64,000 nucleotides of DNA from an uncultured bacterium (GTDB lineage: Bacteria > CSSED10-310 > CAZUFC01). Shown one piece after another: positions 29,946 through 51,998 of this stretch (position 1 is its first letter; each line of letters begins with the position of its first letter). The translations under genes were made by a program, and so were the position numbers. The notes under the pieces are model-generated. The model ran no database searches. It saw nothing but the letters and a program-made list of their open reading frames with translations, and was not told the DNA's origin. Location of the stretch: positions 1 through 64,000 of the forward strand of contig CAZUFC010000001.1 of NCBI GenBank assembly GCA_964619725.1. The letters run 5' to 3'.

Positions 29946-30392
29946 TTGACAGGGGCATTTTTCATACTTGCGAATGAACTGTTTTCCTTTTCACTGAGAC
30001 GCAGGATGATGAACGCTAACAAAGTATACCTGATTGATACCGGTTTTTTGACATTAGCGCAATCTTTCTCTGGAAATAAAGGAAAGGTTCTGGAAAATGC
30101 AGCGGCTATTGAATTTTTCCGTAGAAGGAGGGAATTTTATTATTACAGGAGAAAAAAAGAATGCGCTTTTATACTAAAAAGGGAGAGCCGGGCGGAAATG
30201 GCCGTTCAGGTATGCTGCTCCCTGGAAACATATAATGAAGAGAGAGAGTTTAAGGGTTTGTCGGAAGCGATGGAGAGTTTCGATATTCATAAAGGCATAG
30301 TTTTGACGTATCAGCAGGAAGAGGTCTGCCGCTATAAAGGCAGGGAAATAAGAGTCGTCCCGTTATGGAAATACCTGCTTCATCATGCGTAG
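29946..30392 (+). pseudogene. Remnant of AAA+ ATPase/DUF4143 gene (C-terminal part only)
   Basis: KVYLIDTG, LEN, ECAF (usually ECDF), QVC and IRVVPLWKYLL motifs. There is no Walker A region and no good start. Confidence 0.65.
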
Positions 30393-31210
30393 CTGTGAAG
30401 TCCTTTAAAAACAGATAGGTAATTGACTCCCAGGTAGGTAAAAATAACGAAAAGGAAGCCTATGATGGAGATGACGGCCAGTTTTTTGCCTCCCCAGCCT
30501 CTGGTGACTCTTGCATGGAGGAAAATAGCGTAAACGAACCAGGTGACCAGGGACCAGACTTCTTTAGGGTCCCAGCCCCAGTAGCGTCCCCAGGCTTTGT
30601 AGGCCCAGGCGGAGCCGGAAATAATTCCCAGGGTGAGCATTAAAAAGCCGACCACCACGGTGTGATGCATGATCCTGTCCAGGTTTACGCCGGCTTTTTC
30701 ATCGTCTTTGTCCAGATGTTTGCCTTTTATCAGACTGATAATGGCGGCGATGAATGCAGCAGCAAAGGCAGCGTAACTTAAAAAACATGTCACTACGTGA
30801 AATAGCAGCCAGTTGGATTTCAGCGCCGGCATCAGGGGCCTTATTTCCGCATCCGCTCCCGGAATAAAAGTAGTCGCTGCAATGGCCAGGGCGCTTAAAG
30901 GCATAATGAACCCCCCCAACCGCCTTAATTTAAGTTTCTTCTCGAATATCAGGAATACCACTGTTATGGACCAGGAAAAGAAAATAAAAGATTCATACCT
31001 GTTGGACAGCGGAGCGTGACCGTACCCTACCTGGTAGCTTCTGATCCAACGGTAAATCAGGCTTCCGGTATGAATGACGAAACCCGTCCATACGACCGGC
31101 ATGGCGAAACTTTTCTTTTTATCCTTCTTCTGGAAGAATTCGTATAAAAAAATGAATGCAGCAAGCATGTAAAAAAGCATAGCGATTTGGTTTAAGGTAG
31201 AATCATCCAT
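30383..31210 (-). CDS. ccsA: System II cytochrome c biogenesis protein CcsA/ResC
   Basis: GHAPLSN.YES, PALKSNWL..HV, WWD domain WA..AWGRYWGWDPKE.W, and GLHSY motifs. Confidence 0.95.
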   Translation of the reverse strand: MDDSTLNQIAMLFYMLAAFIFLYEFFQKKDKKKSFAMPVVWTGFVIHTGSLIYRWIRSYQVGYGHAPLSNRYESFIFFSWSITVVFLIFEKKLKLRRLGGFIMPLSALAIAATTFIPGADAEIRPLMPALKSNWLLFHVVTCFLSYAAFAAAFIAAIISLIKGKHLDKDDEKAGVNLDRIMHHTVVVGFLMLTLGIISGSAWAYKAWGRYWGWDPKEVWSLVTWFVYAIFLHARVTRGWGGKKLAVISIIGFLFVIFTYLGVNYLSVFKGLHSYA

Positions 31211-31216
31211 CTGTTC

Positions 31217-32632
31217 TTATCCTTTTCTGTTTTGAGAAGCATCTGCTTGTTTCCGGAAAAATTGCATCAGATCATCCAGCGGTTCGATATTAACATATTT
31301 TTTCGCCTTGAGGGGATATCCGTAAAGACTCAATTTTGTACCTTCCGGGACGGTTTCCAGTTTTGTCCAGACTCTGTAGGGATGAACGAAGAAACTCAGG
31401 ATGAGTCCTAAAACCAGTACGCCTGAGCCGAACCAGATGAATCCGCTTCCCGGATCACGGCTGATTTGAATGCCGGTAGCATAAAACGGCGCCAGGTCCT
31501 TGAATATGACTCGATAATCCATGCCTTCCTTCATCCCGTGAAAGTTGGGATGCATCATGAAAACCCATTGATTTACAGGTTCTTTATCTTTCTCGCTTAT
31601 ACTCAGAAACAAAGCGGGATTTTTAAGCTGATCCGATTTGGAATAGGCTTCGCCGGAAGCATCGATGCTGAAATTAGGTTCAAATCTCTGGGCTTCGATC
31701 ATAATAGGATTTCCTTCGGGCGGTTGAATTTCAAATTTCTGATTGAGTCCCATCATGAATTCTTTTTTTGCTCCGTTTTTGAACTCTATTTCCATAACCG
31801 CCTTATCGACTCCCGTCTGCTGATAGCTGGACTGAAACAGGCGGAATCCCCCATAGGAAAGCGGATGATTCACCAGGAGAGTATGAGTGAGGGTTTCATC
31901 CTGCTCATCCTTGATGGTAATTTCCGATCTGTATTGATCCACGCCGCCGTCGGGATAATAATCGATCTGAAAATCCTCGCAAAGAATCTCAAAACCCAGG
32001 GGAACGGATTCTCCGTTCATGGTCGTAAAGGATTCAGCTGATTCTCCAGGATTGAGCCATATCATGCCTTCTATTCCGAGCAGACTGCTCACCAGTCCTC
32101 CGATAAGGATAATAAGCAAACCGAGATGAGCGAAATAGAAGCCTGATCTGCCTGAAGCGCCTTTTTTACCTGACCACAGGCCGCTTCTGATTTTTTTCGG
32201 TTTGAAGCCGAACCGTTTAAGAGCCGGAAAAACCGAATCCTCCATTTTTTCGAATTCGGCGTCGATTGTTATTTCTCTATACCTGGATTCTTTTATTTTC
32301 TGCGGAAATTCATTTTTCTGTTTTTCTCTGCGCATTCGCTCCAGTTCACCCGGCAATCGATTGTAAGTGCAAACGATCAGATTGACGAATAAAAATGCCA
32401 AGGCCCCTATGTACAAAGGCGAATGATAAATATCGAAAAAACCCAGCCGGGAAAAAATTCGAATAATCGCAGGCGAATATACATCGTGAATATGCCTGGC
32501 TTCATCAGTCCCTTTCTGAATGATCAACGTTCCCAGGATGGAAAGAAGGGTCAGCACGATCAGCAGAAAGATCGTCAGCCTGGTGGAACCTAAAGATATC
32601 ATGAATTGTTTTTTCGGTTTGTTCGATTTCAT
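31217..32632 (-). CDS. resB: System II cytochrome c biogenesis protein ResB/Ccs1
   Basis: SILGTLI.Q, LG..DIYHS, NLIVCT, HLGLLIILIG, VNHPL.Y.G..LFQSSY and TGIQISRDPG motifs. Confidence 0.92.
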   Translation of the reverse strand: MKSNKPKKQFMISLGSTRLTIFLLIVLTLLSILGTLIIQKGTDEARHIHDVYSPAIIRIFSRLGFFDIYHSPLYIGALAFLFVNLIVCTYNRLPGELERMRREKQKNEFPQKIKESRYREITIDAEFEKMEDSVFPALKRFGFKPKKIRSGLWSGKKGASGRSGFYFAHLGLLIILIGGLVSSLLGIEGMIWLNPGESAESFTTMNGESVPLGFEILCEDFQIDYYPDGGVDQYRSEITIKDEQDETLTHTLLVNHPLSYGGFRLFQSSYQQTGVDKAVMEIEFKNGAKKEFMMGLNQKFEIQPPEGNPIMIEAQRFEPNFSIDASGEAYSKSDQLKNPALFLSISEKDKEPVNQWVFMMHPNFHGMKEGMDYRVIFKDLAPFYATGIQISRDPGSGFIWFGSGVLVLGLILSFFVHPYRVWTKLETVPEGTKLSLYGYPLKAKKYVNIEPLDDLMQFFRKQADASQNRKG

Positions 32633-32657
32633 TAAAGAGTTCTCCGCCGCCTTTCAT

Positions 32658-33782
32658 CTAAATAGAATGACATTTGCTGCACAGTTTCTGATAATCCCCG
32701 GCCTTCAATAATCCCTTTGCATTGCTGAAATGAGGGGCATGACACGATACGCAACTCATTTCACTCTCCTTGTCCAGCGGGTCCTGAACTTTTTCTACCG
32801 GATGATTGAATATGGGATGTTTGAGGTGCGCGTATATTTTTTTATCGTGACAGTTCCAACAGAGTTCATTAGGAGTCGTTTTGAGGAAAAAACGGTCGTC
32901 AGCGGAATGGGGATCGTGACAGACAGTGCATCCTTGAACCTGTATCACGGCATGAATAGTTACTGACGTTTCGGTTTCCTTTTTCATATCCTCATGACAA
33001 TTAAAACACAGCGAGGGCTCATCCGCATGAAGCTGATATTTATATCCCGAACCATGCGGATCATGACATACGCCGCAATATCCCGCTCCCAGAGGACCAT
33101 GAACAAAAGCCTTCTTCTTTGTTTTCAGCGCGGTTTCATGGCATTTGCCGCACAATTCAGACTCCTTTTGAATGACTGCAAACCTGCCCTTTCCTTCTTC
33201 GCTCTTTTCCTGATGACAGGTGAAACAACGATAAGCGCCCAATGGTCCGTGAAGATATTCGGCTTGCGTTTTCCGGGCATGACATTCATTGCAAATGGAA
33301 TCCTGCCTGGATACCGGCTTTCTCGTCGATTCATTCACCGTCAGTTCATGACATTGCCTGCAGGTCCCGTCATGCCCGGCTTCATGAAATTCGTCGGTCT
33401 TTTCCCCATTTAACTCGCCGCTGCTGAAATAAGGCATTCTCTTTATCGTAATGCTTTTCTCGGCTGACCCTGAACCTACAGTGAGGGCATTACTTCCGGG
33501 GACGAGGTCGATTCTCCCATGAGAAAAATCAGAATAACGGTCGCTGCCCGCGAAAGGTTCGATCTTCTTTCCGTTTAATTTTACTTCAAGTGACGTCGAA
33601 GTGGATTCCACTATGAGAGTTATGGATGAAGCGCCCGTCACGTAGCCGTCTAAAGGAACTTTTACGTCGAATTCTTCGGACAATTCTGCGCAAAAAGCGA
33701 CTGATGCAAACAGAATGATCATGCCTGTCACTATTCTGCAACCATAATCGCCCATGCCCATATAATTTGTCCTGCGATTCAA
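32658..33782 (-). CDS. Decaheme cytochrome c (paired CxxCH, HGP..CxxCHDPH type)
   Basis: Ten CxxCH motifs, a signal peptide and an N-terminal beta-rich segment. Confidence 0.9.
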   Translation of the reverse strand: MNRRTNYMGMGDYGCRIVTGMIILFASVAFCAELSEEFDVKVPLDGYVTGASSITLIVESTSTSLEVKLNGKKIEPFAGSDRYSDFSHGRIDLVPGSNALTVGSGSAEKSITIKRMPYFSSGELNGEKTDEFHEAGHDGTCRQCHELTVNESTRKPVSRQDSICNECHARKTQAEYLHGPLGAYRCFTCHQEKSEEGKGRFAVIQKESELCGKCHETALKTKKKAFVHGPLGAGYCGVCHDPHGSGYKYQLHADEPSLCFNCHEDMKKETETSVTIHAVIQVQGCTVCHDPHSADDRFFLKTTPNELCWNCHDKKIYAHLKHPIFNHPVEKVQDPLDKESEMSCVSCHAPHFSNAKGLLKAGDYQKLCSKCHSI

Positions 33783-33813
33783 ACTATCTCGACCTCAACG
33801 GTCAGTATTGCCC

Positions 33814-35496
33814 TCAGCGATAACTCACCGGATTCTTCCTGTCATAATCGAAGGGCTTGTGACAACCTACAATGCACCCGCCGCCCGTTTCCGTTTTCGT
33901 ATACTTAATTGGATAACTCCACATCTTACCGTACGGAACTTCTTCCCGTATATGCTTCCTCTGCGATCCCGCATGTATCTCATGACAGGCTTTGCAGCTT
34001 CGGCCCTTTCTCTCCTTGTTCACATGCACGTAATGAAGATTGCGGTCCCCGTTCCTGAAACCGGTCATATCATCGGTCCGCGCCTTTTTAGCTATGTCCG
34101 AACTGTGACAATCAAAACAGAGCGCATAATTTTCCTCATCATAGGAAACATAAAATTCATCAGGAAAATATTTCGTCAACAAATTCGGTTGCGTTGCCCC
34201 ATGCGTAAGGTGACACGAACCGCAATCTCCCCCTTCTACAGGACCATGCTGATATTCACTCGCCTTTACTTGAGCGCCCATTTCCTTGTGACAGATAAAA
34301 CATATTTCTTCCGATGATGCTTTTAAAAGGCTTGAGTGGGCCGAAGCATGAGCATCGTGACATTCTCCGCACCGGCCTTCCTGAACCGGTTCATGCCCCA
34401 CCGTCACCTGCTCCAGTTTCGCTGCAAAATCAGGCGTCATATCCTTGTGACACTCCATGCAGAATTTATCCTCCGCCGCAAAAAGCATGTTGGGGTGATT
34501 CGATGAATGAGCGTTATGACATTCCGTGCAGCCCTGAAACACAATCATATGCAGTGATTTGTCCTCGAATTCCTCCTTCTTGTCGGAGTGACAGGAATAA
34601 CAAGCTTCATTACCGTCCGCGCTCAACAGGGCTGCATGATCGGTCGAATGAGGATCATGACACATGGAACATTCCAGCATCTGAACAGGCGTATGAACCA
34701 CTTCGCCTCCCGTTATCGCTTCCTTTCCATGACACTCAAAACATAATTCGCTCTCGCTGTCATGCAGCAATTGATACCTGACCTCGGATTCATGCGGCGA
34801 ATGACAACCCGTGCATTCGCCCGCATCCAGCGGATAATGAATGTTGCTCTTCTTCCAGAAAGACTCAGCATCCACATGACATACAAGACATAATGATTTG
34901 TCCTCACGAGACAACTCATTCTCATCAAATGAACCATGAGGATTATGACAGTGTATGCACACTCCGGCCCCTACCGGCCCATGCACATACTGTTTTCGGC
35001 CCATATCAGAATGACAGTTCCCCGTCCCGCACGTCGAAACCGGCTTGATCATTCGATAACTCTCTTTCCCGGTCCCTGTTTCATGACATTCGGAACAACG
35101 TTCCATAACAGAAATGCCATCATGACGGTAGAATCTCCGGTAACCTGCCTTCGACGTCTCTCCACGGCGTAAAACATATGCCTCAACCTCCACCGATTCC
35201 AATTCCGAATCCAAGGCTTTCACCTCTATCACGCATTCACCACGCTTCAACTCCACCAGCTTCGAAAACGTCCCGTTCTCTACCCTGACCGTCCGGTCAC
35301 CCGGAGCCTTCCCGTTCGAAACAGAAAATTTTACCTCTTTCACCCCGGAAGGAACCGTCCCGACAACCTCAAAGACGCCCTCTTCCAACGCACTCTTTTC
35401 AGGAGGATAAATTATCCGGAATTCCTCCTCAGCCTCCGCCGAAAAAAACGGCATAATTAAAAAACACAGCATTACGATTAAAATTATCCTCAACAT
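33814..35496 (-). CDS. About 16-heme cytochrome c (paired CxxCH type)
   Basis: 14 CxxCH motifs plus CGTGNCH (Cx4CH) and CIVGCH (Cx3CH), a signal peptide and an N-terminal Ig-like segment. Confidence 0.9.
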   Translation of the reverse strand: MLRIILIVMLCFLIMPFFSAEAEEEFRIIYPPEKSALEEGVFEVVGTVPSGVKEVKFSVSNGKAPGDRTVRVENGTFSKLVELKRGECVIEVKALDSELESVEVEAYVLRRGETSKAGYRRFYRHDGISVMERCSECHETGTGKESYRMIKPVSTCGTGNCHSDMGRKQYVHGPVGAGVCIHCHNPHGSFDENELSREDKSLCLVCHVDAESFWKKSNIHYPLDAGECTGCHSPHESEVRYQLLHDSESELCFECHGKEAITGGEVVHTPVQMLECSMCHDPHSTDHAALLSADGNEACYSCHSDKKEEFEDKSLHMIVFQGCTECHNAHSSNHPNMLFAAEDKFCMECHKDMTPDFAAKLEQVTVGHEPVQEGRCGECHDAHASAHSSLLKASSEEICFICHKEMGAQVKASEYQHGPVEGGDCGSCHLTHGATQPNLLTKYFPDEFYVSYDEENYALCFDCHSSDIAKKARTDDMTGFRNGDRNLHYVHVNKERKGRSCKACHEIHAGSQRKHIREEVPYGKMWSYPIKYTKTETGGGCIVGCHKPFDYDRKNPVSYR

Positions 35497-35559: not shown

Positions 35560-36895
35560 GGAATTCAACCACGAATCATAATAATACCGGAATTCAACCG
35601 AGAATCACCCGAATCGCACGAATAAGAAGGGCAGATTTAACCCGTATCGCTTGTCGTCTGGGTTCGGGTCACATCGGATACTGCGAAAAATGTTCATTGA
35701 TGACTATATTCTTCTGATTCGATTGGTTCGGGAGATTCGCGGTTCCCAAAAAATACAACCACTGCAAATAAAACTACCCTATGCAAGGCTTTTACGGCGT
35801 TTCATCTGTACATTTGACGGAATTCAACCACGAATCTCACGAATCGCACGAATAAGAGGGAAAGACTTAACCCTTATCGCATGTCGTTGGAGTCCGGGTC
35901 ACATCGGATACTGCGAGAAATGTTCATTGATGACTATATTCTTCTGATTCGATTGATTCTGGAGATTCGCGGTTCCCAAAAAATACAACCACTGCAAATA
36001 AAACTACCCTATGCAAGGCTTTTACGGCGTTTCATCTGTACATTTGACGGAATTCAACCACGAATCTCACGAATCGCACGAATAAGAGGGAAAGACTTAA
36101 CCCGTCTCGCATGTCGTTGGAGTCCGGGTCACATCGGATACTGCTGAAAACGTTCACTAATGATTCTACTCTCCTGATTCGATGGATTCGCGAGATTCGT
36201 GGTTCCCAAAAAATACAACCACTGAAAATAAAACAACCCTATGCACAGATTTGATGACGGCGTTTCTTCTGCATATTTGACGGAATTCAACCACGAATCT
36301 CACGAATCGCACGAATAAGAGGGAAAGACTTAACCCGTCTCGCATGTCGTTGGAGTCCGGGTCACATCGGATACTGCGGAAAACGTTCATTAATGATTCT
36401 ACTCTCCTGATTCGATGGATTCGGGAGATTCGCGGTTCCCAAAAAATACAACCACTGAAAATAAAACAACCCTATGCACAGCCTTGATGACGGCGTTTCA
36501 TCTGTACATTTGACGGAATTCAACCACGAATCATCCGAATCGCGCGAATAAGAGGGGCAGGCTTAACCCGTATCGCATGTCGTCCGGGTCCGGGGCGCTT
36601 AGGATACTGAGAAAAACGTTCACTAATGATTCTACTCTCCTGATTCGATTGGTTCGGGAAATTCGCGGTTCCCAAAAAATACAACCATTGCAAATAAAAC
36701 AACCCTATGCACAGCTTTGATGACGGCGTTTCTTCTGCATGTTTGACGGAATTCAACCACGAATCACACGAATCGCACGAATAAGAGGGGCAGGTTTAAC
36801 CTGTATCGCATGTCGTTGGAGTCCGTGGCGCTTCGGATACTGAGAAAAACGTTCATTGATGATTCTACTTTCGTGATTCGATTGATTTCGTGGTC
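35560..36895. repeat. Non-coding tandem array, about 5.6 units of 230-233 bp, each with an inverted REP-like pair
   Basis: GGAATTCAACC at 35589, 35819, 36049, 36282, 36515 and 36748. Each unit has AACCACGAATC..CGAATC paired with GATTCG..GATTCG(C/T)GGTT. Confidence 0.92.
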
Positions 36896-37194: not shown

Positions 37195-37857
37195 CTATTT
37201 ATCGTGGCAGGTCATGCAGAAGGCGCTGGCTTCATTGGATACTCTGAGAGAAAGAGTTTCCGTATTGGGCCCGAAATGGCATCCGGTGCATCCGGCGTCG
37301 TTTCTGGAGACATGGACGTCGTGGCAAGAGCTGCATTCGAGTCTGTCGTTGAACAGGAGGTCATCTGAGATGGTTCCGCCGAGACCCGAAGAGGCTGTTG
37401 CGGGATCGAAGAGTTCTCCGTCCTGGAGCGACAGACCGGTGTCATAGGTAATGGAGATGGGGTGATGTTTTTCGAAGTCGGTTCCCAGGAATCCGAAGTC
37501 GTTGCTGTTCAGAAAGTGTGTTCCGGTATTTCCTCCGAAGCTGTCGAGGGCGACGGAGCCGTCGTGGCATGAGAGGCAGAGTTTGGAGTGGCTTCCGGGT
37601 TGATTAGGTGTTGCATCGAGTGTCGGGCTGGTGTAGGGTTGGAAGACAGAAGAGGTAACTTCATGGTTCCACAGAGGAGCGTCGGCAACAGAGGTATCGG
37701 CATTATGAGGGATATGGCAGGGTTTACAGATTTCATCGTCGCCCCACCCTGCCCAACTGAAATCGTGATGAGAATCTTCAATGCCGCCGGAAGCGACCGA
37801 ACAGATAATGAAAAGGGTGATATGAATGCAAAGAAAGTGTCTCACAAAAGGTCTCAT
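37195..37857 (-). CDS. OmcE-like cytochrome c with five hemes
   Basis: Signal peptide and the motifs HDFS..ICKPCHIPHNA..PLWNH..SKLCLSCHDG..HPIS..CSSCHDVH..CTGCH..CMTCHDK. Confidence 0.85.
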   Translation of the reverse strand: MRPFVRHFLCIHITLFIICSVASGGIEDSHHDFSWAGWGDDEICKPCHIPHNADTSVADAPLWNHEVTSSVFQPYTSPTLDATPNQPGSHSKLCLSCHDGSVALDSFGGNTGTHFLNSNDFGFLGTDFEKHHPISITYDTGLSLQDGELFDPATASSGLGGTISDDLLFNDRLECSSCHDVHVSRNDAGCTGCHFGPNTETLSLRVSNEASAFCMTCHDK

Positions 37858-37933: not shown

Positions 37934-37949
37934 TGGTAAGAAAATTGCA
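37934..37949 (+). promoter_or_regulatory. sigma54 -24/-12 promoter of the NHL-barrel-cytochrome operon
   Basis: TGGTAAGAAAATTGCA (GG-N10-GC), 40 bp before the ATG at 37989. Confidence 0.65.
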
Positions 37950-37988: not shown

Positions 37989-39059
37989 ATGTTAAGCAAA
38001 TTTCGTTCCATTTTACTGCCCCTGATATTCATTTTGATGTCGGGTTGCGCCAAAAGGCCGCCGGCGGCGCCTACGGTATTTTATCCTTCGTTGCCTGCCG
38101 AACCGCGGCTGCAGTTTTTGAAGAGTTACAGCAAGGCGGAGGACGTGCTGAAGGCGCCCGGGGCAGTGAGTTCGTTCATATTGGGTGATAAGGAGGAGAA
38201 AATAGAATTCGTAAAGCCTTATGGAGTAGCCGCCCGTAACGGACGCATATATGTATGCGACACAAAGCGGATGTGCGTGCATGTATTGAATCCTGGAGCG
38301 CATCAATACGAGGTAATGGGCAGGAATATTCTGAAGAAGCCGATAAATATAGCTTTCGATGAATCGGGGAGGTCTTATGTAGCGGACACGTCCCTGAAGC
38401 AGATATTGGTATTCGATGCGGAAGGACGGTATCTCAAGTCGCTGGGGGACCCTCTCATGATTCGCCCGACTGATGTAGCGGTAAGCGGTGACGAATTGTA
38501 TGTATGCGACATAAGGAATCACGTGATAAGGGTCTGGAACCGTGAGACGGGCGAGGAACTAAGGACTGTCGGCGAAGCTGGAAGCCAGGAAGGCGAATTA
38601 TTTCATCCCACCAACATTGTTGTGGATAAAGAGGGATATTTGTACGTTTCCGACACGGGCAACTTTCGCGTACAGAAGTTTGATGATCAGGGCAACCACT
38701 TTTTCACATACGGGGGCATAGGTTTTTCACTGGGTAAATTCGCCCGTCCGAAAGGGATAGCTCTGGACGACCAGGGACGTTTGTACGTGGTTGATTCGGG
38801 ATTTGAAAATATACAGATTTTCGACCAGGAGGGGAGGTTGCTGCTGTTTTTCGGGGAACCGGGGAATCAGCCCGGACAGATCAATCTTCCTGCCAAAGTG
38901 ACTGTATCACGCGAACTCACGGATTATTATCAACAATTTGCAGAAGCGGGGTTTGAACTGGAGTATCTGGTATTCGTAACCAGTCAGTACGGACTGAACA
39001 AAGTAAACATTTACGGCTTCGGACGATATGTTCCCGCTAGCGAACAGGAAATGGAATAA
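37989..39059 (+). CDS. NHL-repeat six-bladed beta-propeller lipoprotein
   Basis: Lipobox LMSGC and NHL repeats (LFHPTNI, LYVSDTGNFRVQKFD, FARPKGIA). Confidence 0.9.
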   Translation: MLSKFRSILLPLIFILMSGCAKRPPAAPTVFYPSLPAEPRLQFLKSYSKAEDVLKAPGAVSSFILGDKEEKIEFVKPYGVAARNGRIYVCDTKRMCVHVLNPGAHQYEVMGRNILKKPINIAFDESGRSYVADTSLKQILVFDAEGRYLKSLGDPLMIRPTDVAVSGDELYVCDIRNHVIRVWNRETGEELRTVGEAGSQEGELFHPTNIVVDKEGYLYVSDTGNFRVQKFDDQGNHFFTYGGIGFSLGKFARPKGIALDDQGRLYVVDSGFENIQIFDQEGRLLLFFGEPGNQPGQINLPAKVTVSRELTDYYQQFAEAGFELEYLVFVTSQYGLNKVNIYGFGRYVPASEQEME

Positions 39060-42509: not shown

Positions 42510-43106
42510 TTGAAGAATCCCGAAAAAAAATTCACGCACAGAAGAACCTATTTCGTCATGAAATCGTTCCAGGCCAGATTTATATTAGTATCCGCTCTGC
42601 TGATCATTGCAGGACTCGCCGCCGCAGCCTGGTATACTGCATACGAAGTCCGGGATGCCCTGGAAAACGCGCTTTATCGCTCGCACATTACTCAGGAATC
42701 CACCGGACAATTCATATTGCCCATCCTGCTTAGGGTTAACATACTCGCCGCGGCAGCTTTCCTGGCTCTCGCCCTCATCATCTTTACCGCTTTGAAAAGA
42801 CGCTATAACTCGTATTTCGAGCGTTTAACGCGAAAAATGAACTTCCTCCCAGACCAGGAGGATACGGTTCTTCCGGCAGTAAATTCACCTTTTTCAGACA
42901 TTGAAAAGAATCTGGAGCAATTCAAAAAAGATGTGGAGCAAAATCAAAGGGAATGCCGCAGCATGATGAAACAAGGACAGGATTTACTCCAGGATATACG
43001 ATCATTAAGGTCCCGTAATGACAAAAGAGAAGTTTTGATCTTAAAAGAAAAATTGGACGCCTATCGTTCCAATATGACAAAAATTTCAACTCGTTATTCA
43101 ATTTAA
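42510..43106 (+). CDS. Two-TM membrane protein with coiled-coil tail
   Basis: RRTYF..SFQARFI N-terminus and two hydrophobic helices. TTG start after AAGGAG. Confidence 0.65.
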   Translation: MKNPEKKFTHRRTYFVMKSFQARFILVSALLIIAGLAAAAWYTAYEVRDALENALYRSHITQESTGQFILPILLRVNILAAAAFLALALIIFTALKRRYNSYFERLTRKMNFLPDQEDTVLPAVNSPFSDIEKNLEQFKKDVEQNQRECRSMMKQGQDLLQDIRSLRSRNDKREVLILKEKLDAYRSNMTKISTRYSI

Positions 43107-43108
43107 GC

Positions 43109-44212
43109 ATGAGTGTTCCAGAATCCAGCGAAATGAAGCCGGGCTGCGGACCTGAAAGGAAACAACGCCGATTCAGCAGCCGCCTGATTCAGCGAGGCGG
43201 TTTATGCCTGGGCGTGTTGTTCGCATTTTTCCTGCAGTCGATGCTCTGCTGGACCTGTATTTTGAAAAAGCCTCCTTCGGCAGATCAAATCATCCGCTGG
43301 CCTGATGCGGGGAAGGAGCGAATCAGGTTTTTGAAGACGGTATCGAGTCCGAAGGAAATGGGAGTGGGAATCGGATTAATGAAACAGGCGGTTTCTGTTT
43401 TCAGCGGGAGGAAAGCGACCCGGATAATGCATCCTGTGGGAGGGAGTTCGTATAAAAGCGACGTGGTGGTCGTTTTGGACTCTTATCAAAAGGGCATACA
43501 CCGTTTTGACCTTCGAGAAGGCAGATATAAGTTCATCGAGGGTATCGGGAATGTGAGACTGCAATCCCCGGTTGATGCAGCTTTTTCGAAAGACGGCCGC
43601 CTTTTCGTAACCGATTCGAAAGCAGGCCGGATATTCCGATTCAAAGCCGACGGGAAAGGGGATGCCGTTTTAAAGAGTGACCCTCCTTTGCAAAGACCAA
43701 CGGGCATATGCTACCATGCTGCTGATAATATGATTCTGGTCTCGGAAACCGTCGCCCACAGAGTAGCGAAACTGTCACTTGATGGAAAGCGGCTGGGTTT
43801 CATAGGCCGGAGGGGAACGGGAGAAGGTTGTTTCAATTTTCCGGTACACCTTGCCGTCGACCGGCAGGGAATGCTTTACGTATGCGATGCCATGAACTTC
43901 AGGATTCAGAAATTCAAAGAGGGGAAATATGCGGGAGAGTTCGGAACATTAGGCGACGGGTACGGCAGTTTTTCGAAACCAAAAGGTATCGCCGTTGATT
44001 CCAAAGGTCATATTTATGTCGCTGACTCATTTTTAGAAGCAGTGCAGATATTTTCGCCGGAAGGCGACCTGCTTCTTGTAATAGGACGGCCGGGACATGA
44101 AGCGGGAGAATTCTGGCTTATTTTGGGACTATGGATAGATGAACGGGACAGATTGTACGTCGCCGATTCTTATAACCAGAGACTTCAGATTTTTCGGTAC
44201 GTTGGAGGATAA
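43109..44212 (+). CDS. NHL-repeat beta-propeller protein
   Basis: FNFPVHLA, DAMNFRIQ, FSKPKGIAVD and YVADSYNQRLQIF motifs. Confidence 0.88.
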   Translation: MSVPESSEMKPGCGPERKQRRFSSRLIQRGGLCLGVLFAFFLQSMLCWTCILKKPPSADQIIRWPDAGKERIRFLKTVSSPKEMGVGIGLMKQAVSVFSGRKATRIMHPVGGSSYKSDVVVVLDSYQKGIHRFDLREGRYKFIEGIGNVRLQSPVDAAFSKDGRLFVTDSKAGRIFRFKADGKGDAVLKSDPPLQRPTGICYHAADNMILVSETVAHRVAKLSLDGKRLGFIGRRGTGEGCFNFPVHLAVDRQGMLYVCDAMNFRIQKFKEGKYAGEFGTLGDGYGSFSKPKGIAVDSKGHIYVADSFLEAVQIFSPEGDLLLVIGRPGHEAGEFWLILGLWIDERDRLYVADSYNQRLQIFRYVGG

Positions 44213-44214
44213 TC

Positions 44215-45981
44215 ATGATCCAGGGCAAGGGCAGGAACTTATACGGCAGCCAAACCGCATTGATTGCCTGCGGCCTGTTGTTTTGCGCTCTCTCCGTCCG
44301 TGCAACGATAAAAATGGTCGACAGCCCCCATAACCTCTCTTCATCAGGCCCCGGACCGACCAGATTCCTGGACCGTGACGAAGTATGCGTCTTCTGCCAT
44401 ACGCCTCATGTTTCTGGTTCCGAAAAACCTCTCTGGAACGAAAAAATGCAATCCAGGCATCACAAGAAGCACGGTTCTCCGAACGTTCATTCCAGCCTTA
44501 GAGTCCCTACGGGAAAATCGAAGTTATGCCTGAGCTGTCACGACGGCACGGTAGCCCTGGGGACGGCGGGAGCATCGAACCAGCAGTCTTTGCAGAACCG
44601 GGACATGAATAAAGGTCAAAGAACGGATTTGGGAGTCGATCTGTCGAACGATCACCCCGTTTCCGTTCCATATCGTTCTCTTTCCTCATCATCGACCGCC
44701 TTGTCCTTACTCCCGTTAAGCGCCGCCGACCCCGTCAAACTCGATGAAACCGGCTGCATCCAGTGCACATCATGTCACGATCCTCATGACAACCAATACG
44801 GCGACTTCCTGGTTATGGATAACCATAAAAGCTCACTCTGCCTGCAATGTCACAACATACCCCATTGGGCGGGAAACGCACATCATACCTCCTCCGCCCG
44901 ATGGAACGGCCTTCCGCCCGATCCCTGGCCGGAATCCCGGAAAAAGAGGGTTTCAGATAACGGCTGCCTTAATTGTCATGATATTCACGGCGCAGCAGGA
45001 AAAAATGGACTGCTTAAAAATGCTGACGAAAATGAAGTCTGCCTCTCCTGCCACAATGCCAACGTCGCTGAATCCGACATCAAAAGCCGATTCGAAAAAT
45101 TCTCCAGGCACCCCCTGGCTGACTCAATGCGACAAACCGTCAGCCGGAAATGGAACGCTGCCCTTCCCAGGTACGTCCGATGCAGCGATTGCCATGACCC
45201 TCATAACGTCACTACCGCCCCGTCCGGAAATGTCATCGGTAAAATAAACGCCTCTCCTGACGATGCCTTACTGTCGCTTCCTCTTTCAACCGCGACAAAA
45301 AATGCTGAATACCGGTTATGCAGCCGATGCCACGGCGAACCCTCCGAAATGAGAAAACCCTATATCCCCCGACAAATCATTCAAACTAACGTCCAACGAG
45401 AATTCGATACGGATAATCCTTCCTACCACCCCATTGAAGCAGCCGGAAAAAATCCGGACGTCCCCAGCCTTATCCCGCCGTTAAATGAAAAAAGCCGGAT
45501 ATCCTGCACCGGTTGCCACGCTGATGACGACTCATCTCCCAACGCCTCCGGTCGATCAGGACCGCATGGCTCACGATACGCTCCGCTACTTCAAAAAAAA
45601 TACGAAACAATGGACTTCGCCATAGAATCCTCTGATTCATACGCCCTCTGCTATAAATGCCATGACAGAAATATCCTCCTCTCCGATCTCTCAGCCTTCC
45701 CCCTTCATCGCCTCCACGTCGTTGATTCCAAAACGCCCTGCGCAGCCTGTCATGACCCGCACGGCATAAGCGCCGAACAGGGAAATTCCCTCAATAACTC
45801 CAGGCTCATTAACTTCAATCTCCGCATCGCCTTCCCACACGCAAACGGACAATTGCGGTTTCTCTCCCACAGACCCCGGTCCGGAAACTGTACGCTCTTC
45901 TGCCACGGAAAAACTCACACAAGCTCTTCATACGGCGCAGGAACCAAAATTATAAATCGCCATATTCAACGGCCGAAATAA
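44215..45981 (+). CDS. About 12-heme cytochrome c with N-terminal OmcE-like module
   Basis: 11 CxxCH motifs plus CTLFCH. The first four hemes follow HNLS..CVFCHTPH..PLWN..SKLCLSCHDG..DLSNDHPV..CTSCHDPH..LCLQCH. Confidence 0.88.
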   Translation: MIQGKGRNLYGSQTALIACGLLFCALSVRATIKMVDSPHNLSSSGPGPTRFLDRDEVCVFCHTPHVSGSEKPLWNEKMQSRHHKKHGSPNVHSSLRVPTGKSKLCLSCHDGTVALGTAGASNQQSLQNRDMNKGQRTDLGVDLSNDHPVSVPYRSLSSSSTALSLLPLSAADPVKLDETGCIQCTSCHDPHDNQYGDFLVMDNHKSSLCLQCHNIPHWAGNAHHTSSARWNGLPPDPWPESRKKRVSDNGCLNCHDIHGAAGKNGLLKNADENEVCLSCHNANVAESDIKSRFEKFSRHPLADSMRQTVSRKWNAALPRYVRCSDCHDPHNVTTAPSGNVIGKINASPDDALLSLPLSTATKNAEYRLCSRCHGEPSEMRKPYIPRQIIQTNVQREFDTDNPSYHPIEAAGKNPDVPSLIPPLNEKSRISCTGCHADDDSSPNASGRSGPHGSRYAPLLQKKYETMDFAIESSDSYALCYKCHDRNILLSDLSAFPLHRLHVVDSKTPCAACHDPHGISAEQGNSLNNSRLINFNLRIAFPHANGQLRFLSHRPRSGNCTLFCHGKTHTSSSYGAGTKIINRHIQRPK

Positions 45982-46364: not shown

Positions 46365-46380
46365 GGGCAGGAAAATTGCA
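46365..46380 (+). promoter_or_regulatory. sigma54 -24/-12 promoter of the tetraheme OmcE-like gene
   Basis: GGGCAGGAAAATTGCA (GG-N10-GC), followed by a double GGAGG RBS and ATG at 46444. Confidence 0.7.
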
Positions 46381-46443: not shown

Positions 46444-47073
46444 ATGAAAAAAGTATTATTTACAATGGGAGTTGCGGCAGTAGTGACGGCAATAATGAGT
46501 CTGGGAACGACGAGTTTTGCGGGCATAGTTGGTTCAGCGCATGATTTTTCTGCTGAAGCGTGGTCCGGCGGCAGGATTTGCATTGTTTGTCATACGCCTC
46601 ATAATGCAGACACGAGCATATCGGAAGCGCCCTTGTGGAATCATGAATTAACGACAGCGACCTTTACGCTGTATTCCAGTCCGACGTTGGATGCGACGCT
46701 CGGACAGCCCGGCGGAGCGTCGAAGCTTTGTTTAAGTTGTCATGACGGGACGGTAGCGATAGACAGTTTCGGAGGAGCGACGGGTACCGAGTTCATAACG
46801 GGTGCGGCTCTGTTAGGAACTGATTTAGCGAACGACCATCCGATTTCATTCACTTATGATACGGCGTTAGCGACGCAGGACGGCGAATTGTTCGATCCGG
46901 CGACCGCTCCCAGCGGATTGGGCGGAACGATTGACGATGATATGCTTTTTGAGGACATGATGCAGTGCGCATCCTGTCACGACGTCCACAACACGGTGAG
47001 TGAGGGCAACCAGAAGTTGCTGGTGATAGACAATACGGGCAGTCTTTTGTGCCTGACATGCCATGACAAGTAG
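46444..47073 (+). CDS. OmcE-like tetraheme cytochrome c (putative nanowire subunit)
   Basis: Signal peptide (SFA) and the motifs HDFS..CIVCHTPHNA..PLWN..TFTLYSS..CLSCHDG..LGTDLANDHPI..CASCHDVH..LCLTCHDK. This matches the motif order of Geobacter OmcE as I recall it. Confidence 0.85.
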   Translation: MKKVLFTMGVAAVVTAIMSLGTTSFAGIVGSAHDFSAEAWSGGRICIVCHTPHNADTSISEAPLWNHELTTATFTLYSSPTLDATLGQPGGASKLCLSCHDGTVAIDSFGGATGTEFITGAALLGTDLANDHPISFTYDTALATQDGELFDPATAPSGLGGTIDDDMLFEDMMQCASCHDVHNTVSEGNQKLLVIDNTGSLLCLTCHDK

Positions 47074-47121: not shown

Positions 47122-47166
47122 ATCAAACGGCATTTTCCGCAAGGGAAGATGCCGTTTGATTTTTTT
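47122..47166 (+). terminator. Rho-independent terminator
   Basis: Stem ATCAAACGGCATTTTCC / GGAAGATGCCGTTTGAT followed by a T tract, between convergent genes. Confidence 0.85.
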
Positions 47167-47179
47167 GTTCTTCGTTTTT

Positions 47180-48910
47180 TTATTTTTTCAAATAGCGATA
47201 GAGAGTAGCTCTTCCGATTTTCAGGAGCGCCGCCGCTTTTACTTTATTGCCGCCGGTTTGCTTGAGCGCATCGAGGACGATTTCACGGGAGAGTTTTTTA
47301 GGTCGTCCTGCTTTGGGTTGTTTTTCTTTTTCTGAGGATTTCTTTGATATGTAGTGGGGCAGGTGGCAGGATTCCAGTGTAATGCTTTTGCATTTGATGG
47401 CGGCATATTGAAGTGCATTTTGCAGTTGCCTGATGTTTCCCGGCCAGGAGAAGTCGCGTAAAGCTGACAGAAAATCGGGCGAGCAGGTTATTTTGCGTCC
47501 GAATTCAGTAGCCAGTCCCTGGAGGAAAAAGTCCACCAGGAGATCGATGTCATCGAGGCGTTCGCGCAAAGGCGGAAGAGTAATCGGGAATCCGCACACC
47601 CGGTAATAGAGGTCTTCACGGAATTTACGTTTTCTCATCAGTTCTTCCAGGTTTCTATTGGTGGCGCTTATGACGCGGACATCAACCTTTTTAGTCTGTT
47701 CGCTTCCGACGCTCGAAAAGACGCCGCTTTGGAGGACCCGAAGGATTTTCACCTGCATGAAAAGACTCAGTTCACCGATTTCATCCAGGAAAATTGTTCC
47801 TCCGTCAGCCAGTTCGAACCTCCCTTTTTTATCCCTGACTGCGCCGGTAAAAGCGCCTTTGACGTGTCCGAACAGCTCGCTTTCCAGAAGTCCTTCGGGA
47901 ATGGCGCCGCAGTTGATAACTACAAAAGTTTTTTTTCTTCTTTTGCTGATCTTGTGGATGGCTTCCGCCACCAGCTCCTTGCCGGTACCGCTTTCGCCCT
48001 GGATAAGAACGGAGACGTCGGTAGGACCTACATCCTTTATGTTCTCGAATATCTCACGGATAAGCGAAGATTTTCCCACCACTCCCATGAAGTGATTTTT
48101 GGGATTATATCTTGTTTTTTTCTTTTCGCTGCGCTCAAAATCCCGGATGGAAACAACAGCGCCGATAACCTTCTCATTACAGTTCCTTATCGGCATGATT
48201 GAGATTTCGGCCGGACGTCTTTTTCCGTTTCTTAACTCTATCTGACGAAAATACCGGAACGCGTCGAATGAATTGCTTGCAGCTTCATAAAAAGGGCATT
48301 CGGAACCGCACAACGACCTGGGAAAAACTTTACGGCATTCCTTTCCCAGCACTTCTTCCCTCGAATACCCGAAAATAAGCTCTGCAGAACGGTTGAAATA
48401 AGTTATGCGCCCATGCTGATCGTGAATGACCATGGCTGAATCCGCATTTTCAAGATAGGACAGCCATTTAATCCGGTTTGACTTCAGTACGTTTATATTG
48501 CCCTTCATCAGGAGGTCCTTTATTTTAACCTCCAATCGGCGCCTCATATCCTCATATCGTTCGTCAGCAAATTCTTCATTACCTTCCCGCTCTCTATCAT
48601 AGGAAAAATCAGACCAGTGAATTATTGAAGGATTCCCCGGAAGAGCCTGCCATGGTTCAATGATACATTCTTCAAATGTTACGATGACGTCGCTGTTGAT
48701 GATTTTATTGATGGTGACGAATTGTGAAGACGCTTCGGCAATATTGAATCCTTTTTTTTTCAATGCTTTTAACACGCCCTCGTTCGGTTTTTCACTGTCC
48801 GTCACCGCGCATTCCACCCGGAAATCTCCCGGTAATTCTTGCTCGGCTATTGATTTGGATATCAGGCTTAATCCGTTCCGCCCCGACGATATGAACAAAA
48901 TATTCATCAT
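47180..48910 (-). CDS. sigma54-dependent activator: ArsC/LMW-PTP-like + PAS + AAA+ + Fis HTH
   Basis: GESGTGKE, ESELFGHVKGAFTGA, FLDEIGE, WPGNIRQL and an HTH. PAS motif FNRSAELIFGYSREEVLG. The start is probably MMNILF (the ORF track begins at 49039). Confidence 0.9.
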   Translation of the reverse strand: MMNILFISSGRNGLSLISKSIAEQELPGDFRVECAVTDSEKPNEGVLKALKKKGFNIAEASSQFVTINKIINSDVIVTFEECIIEPWQALPGNPSIIHWSDFSYDREREGNEEFADERYEDMRRRLEVKIKDLLMKGNINVLKSNRIKWLSYLENADSAMVIHDQHGRITYFNRSAELIFGYSREEVLGKECRKVFPRSLCGSECPFYEAASNSFDAFRYFRQIELRNGKRRPAEISIMPIRNCNEKVIGAVVSIRDFERSEKKKTRYNPKNHFMGVVGKSSLIREIFENIKDVGPTDVSVLIQGESGTGKELVAEAIHKISKRRKKTFVVINCGAIPEGLLESELFGHVKGAFTGAVRDKKGRFELADGGTIFLDEIGELSLFMQVKILRVLQSGVFSSVGSEQTKKVDVRVISATNRNLEELMRKRKFREDLYYRVCGFPITLPPLRERLDDIDLLVDFFLQGLATEFGRKITCSPDFLSALRDFSWPGNIRQLQNALQYAAIKCKSITLESCHLPHYISKKSSEKEKQPKAGRPKKLSREIVLDALKQTGGNKVKAAALLKIGRATLYRYLKK

Positions 48911-49176
48911 CTTTTTCCGTAATTTATCACCTGGCTTATTCTGAAGATTATTATCGTCTGAAATCACGGAATTCTTTTCATTCCGCTGCCAGTCATCATT
49001 TTTAAAGCGCTGCCCAGAATCAGAAGATTCTATTCTCATATAAAAGAATTGTTGTATAAAGTCAAGAGACCATCAGTTTCTCTTTTCCTGAGACGGAGAG
49101 AGAGATGCTTTTGCTGAGACGAGACGGACGGGGCAGTTCAACGCGGGCTTTGGGGGATTGTTTTACTTTTGATTTC

Positions 49177-49204
49177 TTGACTTTTGTGCGCCGATTATTA
49201 TGAT
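49177..49204 (+). promoter_or_regulatory. Possible sigma70 promoter
   Basis: TTGACT-N16-TATGAT. Confidence 0.4.
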
Positions 49205-49382
49205 TAAATTCAGATACTTCCGACTGGATAAGAATGGGTCAGCGAAGTCTCCATACATAATTGCCAGTGATCCGTAAATCCAGACAAGGGTTAACATCCG
49301 TCGCTTCTGCATTCTCATTTACAGACCGGCCATTTTTATCAGTCGAAAAGCGTCAAAGAAAAGAAAACGACAGGAGGAAATA

Positions 49383-51998
49383 ATGAGGGAAAAAAAGAAG
49401 GTATTTTTGTATTCATCGATACTGGTCATCATATTGGTTCTATATTCGGGTGAGCGTCAAACAACGTATCAGGAATCATTTTTGGATTCTGAACGGCGCT
49501 TGAGCAATCCCGAATATGACGATTTATTCAATCTTGACGACAGTAAGCAAAAGACTTTTTTTCATCATGTGGAGGATTGCACGGTTTGTCATTGTTTAAC
49601 ATCGCCTAATCTGGCGAATGTATGTGAAGTTATTTCGACTCCGAACGGAGGTGACAGGGAAGTCGTTTTCGTCTCTCGTACAGGAACCAACTCATTTGCT
49701 GACGGCGATGCCGTTTATGACGGGGTATGCGAGGTGTGTCATACGCAGACGAATTACCACCGCCATAATGGCGAGAACCCGGACCCTGATCCTCATTATG
49801 CGGGAGAAGATTGCATAGAGTGTCATGCTCACGAAAACGAATTCAGTCATGGCGGAGGTGAGGATTGCATAGCGTGTCACGGGCATGATGCGGGTTATGA
49901 GTATGCGCCGGGCGAAGTCAGTTCAGGAGCTGGGACATATTACAGTCATTCGACGCACACGGAGGATGATGCGGACGACAGGAAGGGCCCGTACTTAAGT
50001 TGCGCTGCCTGTCACGACACGGAGAATTTTCCATATTTCAAGTCAGGGTTGGGCGATCCGCCGTACAGTCTTGCAGCGACGGATGTGTGCGATGCCTGTC
50101 ACAGTCCCGGCGGCAGTTATGACGGATTGGACGATCCTGTGACGGGAGCTCGGTACAACTGGATTGACGGAGCTTATATAAAATCGAAAAACTTACGCCC
50201 CGGAATGGAAAAGTGGTGTGCGGGGTGTCACGATGAGGAGCCGGCCAACTGTAAAATGGAACCGTCGGGGGCCTGGGCGCCGTCGGTCATAGGCGATGAA
50301 ACGGCTGCGACGGATTACGGTATCGGATACGGGTATTATATGACCGGGCATGGACTTCCGGCTGATGAAGTCTATCCAGCGACGGAATCTTCCGGCGCGG
50401 GGCTGGAGTGCCTGGAATGTCATGATCCTGAAGTAAAACATATTGACTGTGCGCGCCGGACCTATGTTCCCGACAGCGATTACCTGACATATGATCCGGA
50501 AAGCGAGAGTTATATGAACGGATTCCGGTTGAGGGCAGTTGATTCGGGATATGACGGAATTTACCCCATGCATATTCCCCGTACCGGCCATGTTTATCCG
50601 CCGGGATTCAGAGAAAATTGGGAGTTCGCTCTGTGCTTCCGGTGTCATGATCGTAATACGTTGTTTGACGGAGGCGACTCCGTAACGGGGGCCGGCGGAG
50701 GAACGAATTTCCGCGCCGTCAGTGACGGCACGCCCGGTTACGGAGGGAATCCGAAGCCCACGGAAGGGGCATGGTACAGCATGCACGACGTCCATACCTG
50801 GGGAGCCAATGGACCGATAGAAGCAGAAACGCCTCAGTACGATTCCGATTTTGACGGCACGGCGGATTCGCGGTTGAGTTGTCCGGCCTGCCATAACGTC
50901 CACGGTTCGTATTCGCCGGCCATGGTGCGGCATGGAGAACTGATCAGTTCTATGGGCACGACGGATAAAGTCCCTTCAATCGAATTTCAGTATACCCCGG
51001 ATGAGACTTACCCTTTGCTCCTGGACAGCACGGGCGGACGAACCCGGTTTATAGGAACAGGCCCCGGAGATGTACTCAAAAACGGCATTTGCAATATGTG
51101 TCACAATGATTCAACTATTTACTCCAGGATAGCGCTCGGCGTTCCCGTTCCCGAAGCATCCGGATTTAACCCTCCGCATACGGCCATAAACGTTTCCGTC
51201 GATTCCGAATTGACGTTTACGCTGTCCCAGGAGGCGGAAGGCATTGACTGGACGACCTTTTCCATAGAGTTGTCCGGCGATCAGGGATATTATCAGGAGT
51301 ATACGGATGAAAACGGTTCGGTCGTTTCCATATCCGGAACGCCTCAATCCTATGACGTAACGGTCGCTCCTTCTGAGGATTTCGCCATGGGAGAAGTCAT
51401 CACCGTTACGATAAACGTCAATGATCTGGCGAATCCTCCGCATCCTTTGATACCGCCCCAATGGGTTTTCACTGCCGTACCGGACGGCCCGGGTACGCTG
51501 ACGTTACATCCGGCCGGCATCGCCGATAATTCGGGAGAATTCGGCACGCTGGGCGGCGACTGGAGCACGGTCATGGACGTTCACGACAGCGACGCATCAT
51601 ACGCGCACAGGTGCTGCGGACCGCCCGTCTATTCATGTCGCCTGGCAATGGATGATCCGATCGGGTTGGACAATTCGACCGTCACCGGCATTACGGTTTT
51701 CGCCTACGCCCGCTATCTTGAAGGCGCCTGGCCCGATGCCGCACCCACGACCGGAAACGTTATGCTCGGCTATAAAACCGGATCGGCCGTAATCTGGACA
51801 AGCGCTATCGGTACCGACGCTTCAGGAGAATACAACCTGATCTTTTCCAATACCTACACTGCCGATTCTGACGGAGGCGAACTCGACGTAAACGATATAA
51901 TAAACCTGGAAATCCCCGTCAAAAGATACATCGGCGGACCGCTGCAACTTAGAATCACGGAACTTTTTGCTGAAATAGAATATTTGCCCCCGGAATGA
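49383..51998 (+). CDS. 11-heme cytochrome c with C-terminal Ig-like/beta-sandwich domains
   Basis: N-terminal hydrophobic helix and 11 CxxCH motifs. P...AINVSVDSELTFT...EVITVTI resembles an Ig-like domain. Confidence 0.85.
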   Translation: MREKKKVFLYSSILVIILVLYSGERQTTYQESFLDSERRLSNPEYDDLFNLDDSKQKTFFHHVEDCTVCHCLTSPNLANVCEVISTPNGGDREVVFVSRTGTNSFADGDAVYDGVCEVCHTQTNYHRHNGENPDPDPHYAGEDCIECHAHENEFSHGGGEDCIACHGHDAGYEYAPGEVSSGAGTYYSHSTHTEDDADDRKGPYLSCAACHDTENFPYFKSGLGDPPYSLAATDVCDACHSPGGSYDGLDDPVTGARYNWIDGAYIKSKNLRPGMEKWCAGCHDEEPANCKMEPSGAWAPSVIGDETAATDYGIGYGYYMTGHGLPADEVYPATESSGAGLECLECHDPEVKHIDCARRTYVPDSDYLTYDPESESYMNGFRLRAVDSGYDGIYPMHIPRTGHVYPPGFRENWEFALCFRCHDRNTLFDGGDSVTGAGGGTNFRAVSDGTPGYGGNPKPTEGAWYSMHDVHTWGANGPIEAETPQYDSDFDGTADSRLSCPACHNVHGSYSPAMVRHGELISSMGTTDKVPSIEFQYTPDETYPLLLDSTGGRTRFIGTGPGDVLKNGICNMCHNDSTIYSRIALGVPVPEASGFNPPHTAINVSVDSELTFTLSQEAEGIDWTTFSIELSGDQGYYQEYTDENGSVVSISGTPQSYDVTVAPSEDFAMGEVITVTINVNDLANPPHPLIPPQWVFTAVPDGPGTLTLHPAGIADNSGEFGTLGGDWSTVMDVHDSDASYAHRCCGPPVYSCRLAMDDPIGLDNSTVTGITVFAYARYLEGAWPDAAPTTGNVMLGYKTGSAVIWTSAIGTDASGEYNLIFSNTYTADSDGGELDVNDIINLEIPVKRYIGGPLQLRITELFAEIEYLPPE

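Follow-up and report, generated by a model that had tools for sequence, protein, structure and literature searches.

The described system closest to the locus reported here is the omcE cluster of Desulfuromonadia, whose minimal form, according to Petersen et al. (bioRxiv 10.1101/2025.10.22.684050; mBio PMC13712944), consists of the OmcE subunit, two beta-propeller lipoproteins, a large barrel and two multiheme cytochromes, beside resB/ccsB. Its authors describe homologues from Thermodesulfobacteriota, Pseudomonadota, Aquificota, Campylobacterota and Nitrospirota, propose 5-heme OmcE-like proteins of uncultured bacteria from diverse phyla as a new nanowire family (section 9), and state that the operons encode no OmcE-like candidate for a tip or an anchor. 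A literature search for the cluster outside Desulfuromonadia retrieved only this article and a 2026 peat preprint (10.64898/2026.05.27.727921), which places 'OmcE-like' cytochromes in conserved Acidobacteriota/Verrucomicrobiota clusters that may be the same cluster. Here we examine a block of ~21 kb (positions 30383-51998) in the window, by which we mean the first 64,000 nt of contig C1 (CAZUFC010000001.1) from an uncultured bacterium. The block is probably a cluster of the OmcE cytochrome-nanowire type that has spread horizontally and is controlled by sigma-54, a reading based on the matches of its 4-heme protein (E4) to both solved OmcE filaments, on the presence of the published gene set beside resB/ccsB, on the conserved linkage of these genes and on an adjacent gene for a sigma-54 activator. 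This cluster type is already published and very widespread, and the window is a new carrier of it, not a new kind of system. The genes of the block, with heme motifs counted as CxxCH, longer-spaced CxxxCH and CxxxxCH motifs tallied apart and domains assigned by Pfam, are as follows.

30383-31210, minus strand: CcsA, System II cytochrome c maturation (Cytochrom_C_asm, E 3.5e-53)
31217-32632, minus strand: ResB/CcsB (ResB, E 2.7e-78)
32658-33782, minus strand: c10, 10-heme paired-CxxCH cytochrome, presumed periplasmic relay (10 CxxCH; Paired_CXXCH_1, E 3.8e-41)
33814-35496, minus strand: c16, 16-heme paired-CxxCH cytochrome, presumed periplasmic relay (14 CxxCH, one CxxxxCH and one CxxxCH; Paired_CXXCH_1, E 5e-68)
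37195-37857, minus strand: E5, 5-heme OmcE-like protein of 220 aa (5 CxxCH; PDB matches below)
37989-39059, plus strand: NHL1, NHL beta-propeller lipoprotein (NHL, E 1.5e-25; lipobox MSGC at residues 17-20)
39080-41062, plus strand: predicted outer-membrane beta-barrel of 660 aa (AlphaFold2 model; no Pfam family)
41083-41673, plus strand: TM1, small membrane protein (TTG start at 41083 behind GGAGG; two hydrophobic helices; no Pfam family)
41670-42500, plus strand: c7, 7-heme cytochrome (7 CxxCH)
42510-43106, plus strand: TM2, small membrane protein (two hydrophobic helices; no Pfam family)
43109-44212, plus strand: NHL2, second NHL beta-propeller (NHL, E 9.8e-30)
44215-45981, plus strand: c12, 12-heme cytochrome with an OmcE-like N-terminal domain and an 8-heme tail (11 CxxCH and one CxxxCH)
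46444-47073, plus strand: E4, 4-heme OmcE homologue of 209 aa, presumed filament subunit (4 CxxCH; PDB matches below)
47180-49039, minus strand: sigma-54 enhancer-binding protein with a PAS sensor and without a receiver domain (Sigma54_activat, E 4.3e-70; PAS_9, E 1e-13; HTH_8, E 4e-10)
49383-51998, plus strand: c11, 11-heme cytochrome of 871 aa with an immunoglobulin-like domain (11 CxxCH; Big_5, E 5.7e-5)

E4 aligned over its full length with both solved OmcE filaments, 7TFS (E 1.5e-23) and 9YUQ (E 2.3e-22), which are, respectively, the G. sulfurreducens OmcE filament and the D. soudanensis OmcE bundles described by Petersen et al., and a profile of 50 E4-family members matched the two at E 4e-41 and 6.1e-38. 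The same structures were found with E5 (9YUQ, E 1e-16; 7TFS, E 9e-13) and with residues 16-214 of c12 (9YUQ, E 1.4e-21; 7TFS, E 5e-19), and OmcS gave a marginal match to the E4-family profile (E 3.4e-4 over 16 residues). In an alignment of heme ligands that covered 88 four-heme relatives, 11 five-heme relatives and 53 c12 heads, four CxxCH motifs and the histidines H33, H53, H132 and H182 recurred in the four-heme relatives (H53 in 92%, H33 in 98% and the rest in 100%) and were fully conserved in the five-heme relatives and c12 heads. In alignment A2 these four histidines are invariant, and both 7TFS and 9YUQ have His at the matching positions. Petersen et al. name this combination of four CxxCH motifs and four additional His as conserved in OmcE, where a His bonds the heme of the neighbouring subunit (PMC9473688). 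In the 5-heme class, the fifth motif is inserted after motif 3 and before motif 4, and E5 falls in a clade of mostly 5-heme proteins (Shimodaira-Hasegawa-like approximate likelihood ratio test, SH-aLRT, 96). Judged by sequence, E4 is a true OmcE homologue, and E5 and the c12 N-terminal domain are OmcE-like; an earlier interpretation of the same DNA, made from the letters alone (hereafter the sequence-only reading), had taken E4 and E5 for relatives of OmcE, and the matches to 7TFS, 9YUQ and the family profile bear it out.

Set against the Desulfuromonadia omcE cluster, the block has the same tetraheme subunit with four CxxCH and four His, two propellers, a large barrel, extra multiheme cytochromes and adjacency to resB/ccsB. 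It differs in a ninth conserved His of the window subfamily where OmcE has Arg, in a conserved c12 with an OmcE-like head of its own where Petersen et al. report no OmcE-like tip or anchor candidate, in a 5-heme paralogue and putative sigma-54 control, and in a host phylum absent from the five that they list. E5 resembles the 5-heme OmcE-like family outlined by Petersen et al. in length, sequence and its fifth CxxCH, but shares its locus with a 4-heme paralogue, as also happens in at least nine related loci.

The sequence-only reading had further proposed that 39080-41062 encodes a barrel. An AlphaFold2 model computed on a 35-sequence alignment was of good quality (mean predicted local distance difference test, pLDDT, 88.8; predicted TM-score, pTM, 0.70) and contained ~30 beta-strands, with a small inserted domain (residues 400-463) that holds the most conserved residues of the family. 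Its best Foldseek matches were Cir, MtrB, the FimD usher and LptD, with TM-scores of 0.28-0.40, and VIA-align returned BtuB (Z 19.5), PiuA (19.3), Cir (18.1), pilus ushers (15-16) and LptD (12.9). MtrB aligned with Z 17.5 and a root-mean-square deviation of 7.0 over 456 residues (model positions 39-660), the longest alignment among the listed chains, at 10% identity and a TM-score of 0.33. All of the top structural matches were outer-membrane barrels, and the protein atlas lists the family only as 'hypothetical protein'. The model thus upholds the earlier assignment: the protein is predicted to form a barrel in the outer membrane, and no solved structure is closely related to it.

Genes for a large outer-membrane barrel and for multiheme cytochromes also occur together in MtrCAB and other porin-cytochrome conduits (PDB 6R2Q). 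The barrel of the window nevertheless has more strands than MtrB and comes with propeller partners; the block contains no Pfam match to the MtrA family, and MtrC/MtrF-domain matches above the cut-off occurred only in c16 and c12 and there coincide with stronger matches to generic heme families. The osc (OmcS companion) cluster of G. sulfurreducens, as described in PMC13194489, is likewise devoted to a cytochrome filament, which its genes are proposed to help fold, secrete and shape. It resembles the block in this, but it serves OmcS, itself only a marginal match to the E4 profile. In Desulfovibrio ferrophilus, DFE_448-451 and DFE_461-465 encode NHL propellers together with multiheme cytochromes, as the block does, for a proposed outer-membrane complex (Deng et al., 2018, PMC5815863). 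Identity with these clusters was rejected: their cytochromes have 330 aa and 14 hemes, 413 aa and 16 hemes, 378 aa and 7 hemes, and 386 aa and 7 hemes, and the supplement table of PMC5815863 lists neither a ~205-aa tetraheme nor a ~560-aa 12-heme protein among them.

Relatives of E4 are abundant, with more than 7,300 at E <= 1e-3 among 8,000 scored candidates, and the best 120, the window's own protein aside, are 60-72% identical and come from metagenome-assembled genomes of many phyla. We surveyed loci in one genome per species, which gave 610 candidate stretches, at least 564 of them encoding a close E4 relative and spanning a dozen or more phyla, and kept 79 loci. NHL1 relatives occurred in 77 of the 79, directly after the 4-heme gene, barrel family members in 68, c12 (at >=50% coverage of the window protein) in 55 and c10 relatives in 64, of which 36 cover >=50%. 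Among the 36 loci with full 10-kb flanks, 34 combined propeller, c12 and barrel, the two exceptions being Bdellovibrionota. In related loci NHL2 always directly precedes the 12-heme gene, and the usual order is NHL2, the 12-heme gene, often a ~490-aa one-heme protein and the sigma-54 activator, the 4-heme gene, NHL1, a small 5-heme protein, the barrel, an 8- to 14-heme protein and optional extra 4- or 5-heme copies. The order in the window (NHL1, barrel, TM1, c7, TM2, NHL2, c12, E4) is closest to proteobacterial and Nitrospirota layouts. This agrees with the E4 tree, where the window protein groups, at weak support, with proteins from Desulfobacteraceae, Myxococcota, Bdellovibrionota and Pseudomonadota, and with the c12 tail, whose nearest relatives are from Candidatus Thiodiazotropha (47-48% identity), the cultured Azoarcus sp. 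DN11 being listed as well. The E4 tree as a whole mixes phyla, with 35 label changes against a minimum of 11. Carriers also occur in genomes labelled Bacteroidota, Ignavibacteriota, Calditrichota, Gemmatimonadota, Planctomycetota, Verrucomicrobiota, Deferribacterota, KSB1 and Bdellovibrionota. As a separate observation, betaproteobacterial copies of the cluster (L036, L058, L059 and L077) adjoin 18- to 24-heme cytochromes on the opposite strand. The novelty that the sequence-only reading had drawn from an unusual host does not hold, with the cluster type and its spread beyond Desulfuromonadia already in print (Petersen et al.) and relatives in hundreds of species genomes.

The sigma-54 activator of the block, postulated before and confirmed by its Sigma54_activat domain, is encoded next to E4, and an activator gene precedes the 4-heme gene in many related loci. 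Three sigma-54-like -24/-12 elements lie near genes of the cluster.

37934-37948, plus strand: sigma-54-like -24/-12 element TGGTAAGAAAATTGC, 40 bases upstream of the NHL1 operon
46365-46379, plus strand: sigma-54-like -24/-12 element GGGCAGGAAAATTGC, 65 bases upstream of the E4 gene
37996-38010, minus strand: sigma-54-like -24/-12 element TGGAACGAAATTTGC, ~140 bases upstream of E5, of putative function and the only match with one mismatch in the window

In TGGTAAGAAAATTGC and GGGCAGGAAAATTGC alike, GG and GC are spaced as in sigma-54 promoters (GG-N10-GC), and the same 10-mer, GAAAATTGCA, follows a GG. We also observed that a ~485-500-aa protein with a single CxxCH regularly precedes the activator in related loci (L009, L013, L035, L051 and L067); the window lacks it and has the PAS-fused activator instead.

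From these parts the following mechanism may be proposed. Apo-cytochromes would be exported and receive their hemes from the locus's own CcsBA pair (ResB/CcsA), and the paired-CxxCH proteins c10 and c16 would carry electrons across the periplasm. The ~30-strand barrel would serve as a passage through the outer membrane or as an anchor in it, with the NHL1 lipoprotein and NHL2 as assembly or scaffold partners, and c12, by virtue of its OmcE-like head and 8-heme tail, could link barrel or periplasm to the fibre. Outside the cell, E4 would polymerise head to tail through the histidine-to-neighbouring-heme bond of OmcE, E5 being perhaps a variant subunit with one extra, more exposed heme. The PAS-containing activator would switch on the -24/-12 promoters of the propeller operon and the E4 gene, and probably that of the E5 gene.

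The sequence does not settle whether electrons would leave for an acceptor or arrive from a donor, and it is possible, if somewhat unlikely, that the cluster works inward, taking up electrons from a solid or partner donor such as reduced iron or sulfur minerals or a syntrophic partner. Candidatus Thiodiazotropha, the source of the nearest relatives of the c12 tail, are sulfur-oxidising symbionts; many betaproteobacterial and gammaproteobacterial carriers adjoin 18- to 24-heme cytochromes, and NHL-plus-multiheme clusters have been proposed for electron uptake in D. ferrophilus (PMC5815863). Multiheme wires are nonetheless reversible, and a RuBisCO large-chain-like gene in the window (10827-12017, plus strand), which may encode a RuBisCO-like protein and not a carboxylase, reached only a modest Pfam score (E 5.8e-21).

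Several observations weigh against the block being a regulated nanowire cluster. Filament formation by E4 is inferred from homology. A ninth histidine, H67 (in LWNH), is conserved as well: it occurs in 90% of the 88 four-heme relatives and is invariant in alignment A2, at a position that is Arg in both solved OmcE filaments and in most c12 heads. Should H67 be the ligand of the heme that in OmcE stays free for the next subunit, E4 would be a capped monomer, and 'nine histidines and four hemes' is, in Petersen et al., the signature of a non-extending anchor. The AlphaFold2 model of c12 (mean pLDDT 52.5, pTM 0.39) was unusable for a fold search. The sigma-54 pattern is not enriched in the window, where 22 matches with <=2 mismatches compare with a shuffle mean of 45.6, and a crude scan with estimated gene starts found a -24/-12 match of >=9/11 upstream of the 4-heme gene in only five of 76 related loci. 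Of the claim that two matching promoters exist, the elements, their spacing and their common 10-mer GAAAATTGCA therefore stand, but without statistical enrichment of the pattern, so that the weight of the two elements comes from their position. By Pfam, 30383-51998 contains no quinol-oxidising inner-membrane component. Finally, the physiological role of cytochrome filaments is itself disputed (PMC11077965 and PMC13194489).

The nearest candidate for electron entry is a 751-aa membrane protein outside the block (23637-25892, plus strand) in which CopD-like helices occur together with a cytochrome b5 domain and a multiheme domain of nine CxxCH. Electrons might enter the locus through it at the inner membrane, but relatives of it were found in none of the 79 related loci. 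The earlier description of a 'full route' in a 'self-contained' locus was an overstatement in this respect, the block having no inner-membrane quinol oxidase and the outside candidate not being conserved with the cluster.

H67 speaks for a homologous cluster that makes no fibre, in which E4 and E5 would be monomeric surface or periplasmic cytochromes and c12 would be threaded in the barrel of a static Mtr-like porin-cytochrome conduit: it replaces the Arg of both filaments and matches the non-extending design just mentioned. Among solved barrels, it is moreover MtrB whose alignment covers most of the model (Z 17.5, 456 residues), and OmcE-like tetrahemes are widespread and need not all form wires, as Petersen et al. 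remark. Against this, true OmcE's N-terminal His and its four distal His have all been retained, the 60-72% identity of E4 across phyla points to tight packing constraints, and the extra E4 and E5 copies in many loci fit major and minor subunits. MtrB has 26 strands, and the barrel of the window, with ~30, looks larger. On balance, we regard a static conduit as doubtful and distinctly unlikely, and prefer a cluster of the OmcE nanowire type.

The host genome is a bin of 9.17 Mb in 344 contigs (90.9% complete, 6.5% contaminated), with C1 its largest contig (204 kb), and the four sequencing runs found, all DNA and from one study, are labelled microbial mat metagenome; the one that covers the sequence best may be its source, and no RNA run was listed. 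The nearest relatives of its RpoB, labelled 'bacterium', are 74-79% identical, followed by NC10, Nitrospirota, Schekmanbacteria and Nitrospinota at 70-72%; the host phylum comprises 14 species genomes, and the host stands alone in its family. RpoB relatives and phylum placement agree with the sequence-only reading that the host is not Geobacter. An E4-like gene is present in only three of the 14 genomes of the phylum, and the other two copies are just 46-54% identical to E4 of the window, less than relatives from Bacteroidota or Calditrichota, and pair with each other on the tree and not with the window. Across the genome, 16 frames have >=4 CxxCH, nine of them on C1, and there are two ResB copies, one in the locus and the other on contig C14, so the claim that the locus brings its own maturation genes was correct: it holds a second ResB/CcsA pair. 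Given the share of multiheme frames on C1 (9/16), the second ResB copy and the phylum-mixed E4 tree, the block reads as an acquired island in an otherwise cytochrome-poor host. That bin contamination has led to a false host, the cluster really coming from a commoner phylum, is very improbable. The bin does have 344 contigs and 6.5% contamination, a second odd rpoB-like frame lies on contig C78, and C180, the contig with rpoB, reaches a correlation of only 0.919 with the mean tetranucleotide profile. C1, however, correlates 0.997 with the genome mean (median 0.987 for 103 contigs >=30 kb), and the closest E4 relatives are only 71-72% identical.

The RpoB itself (C180, 5890-10077, minus strand; 1,421 aa) has a cysteine-rich zinc-ribbon-like insertion near residues 78-150, and its nearest relatives (1,421-1,502 aa) seem to share the extra length. 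The rpoB-like frame on C78 (14707-17577, minus strand) is much weaker and part of a 1,903-aa frame, and may represent a divergent polymerase or contamination.

For the remaining genes of the block, Pfam gives the cytochromes generic multiheme families. Of the further multiheme cytochromes, c7 and c12 lie inside the operon, and c10 and c16 beside resB/ccsA on the opposite strand. Relatives of c7, for which no significant sequence relative was found in the PDB, trail the cluster in proteobacterial and Nitrospirota layouts, and relatives of TM1 adjoin the 7-heme gene in two related loci (L008 and L016). TM2 appears to be a distant paralogue of TM1, phmmer tying both to the same open reading frames of L016 and L008, although direct BLAST between the two detected no similarity. 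A rough lipobox pattern is present in 55 of 76 NHL1 relatives, and no lipobox was found in NHL2. The 11-heme c11 had no PDB relative by sequence and partial matches in only two of the 79 related loci; it is lineage-specific, and its position suggests that it may belong to the system. All genes that had been listed before are open frames where they had been placed, with the heme counts (10, ~16, 5, 7, ~12, 4 and 11) and their total over the seven cytochromes (62 CxxCH and 3 longer-spaced motifs) exact on recount; ccsA-resB, the two NHL propellers and the activator were Pfam-confirmed, the two small membrane proteins do have two hydrophobic helices each, and the flanks are as described (a PT-rich secreted protein at 52618-56235 and a C25 peptidase at 59574-62357).

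Between the c16 and E5 genes, 35588-36887 is filled by 5.6 tandem copies of a 233-bp unit (91% matches) that belongs to no Rfam family, and the short 'open reading frames' at 35651-35947 and 35881-36147 are read-throughs of this repeat. An Rfam scan of 28000-54000 found no family, and no tRNA was found in the window. A weak match to an IS200-type transposase (26839-27468, minus strand; E 5.3e-8) lies ~3 kb off the ccsA end.

With this locus, a small and barely sampled microbial-mat phylum joins the carriers of OmcE-type machinery, and the cluster proves far more widespread than the five phyla in print. A bolder proposal, which we put forward tentatively and hold to be unlikely, is that c12 is the missing base (or cap) of OmcE-type wires, its head joining the fibre by a His-heme contact and its tail running through the barrel to the periplasm, that each OmcE-like module has its own NHL propeller as assembly partner, an idea that matches the conserved pairs E4-NHL1 and NHL2-c12, and that the whole set is a mobile cassette spreading fibre-based extracellular electron transfer to a dozen or more phyla, including that of the host. 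If true, c12 as base or cap would answer the question of initiation and anchoring that Petersen et al. left open. Two details are testable: a c12 with an OmcE-like head is a candidate anchor, and H67 could decide between fibre and monomer.

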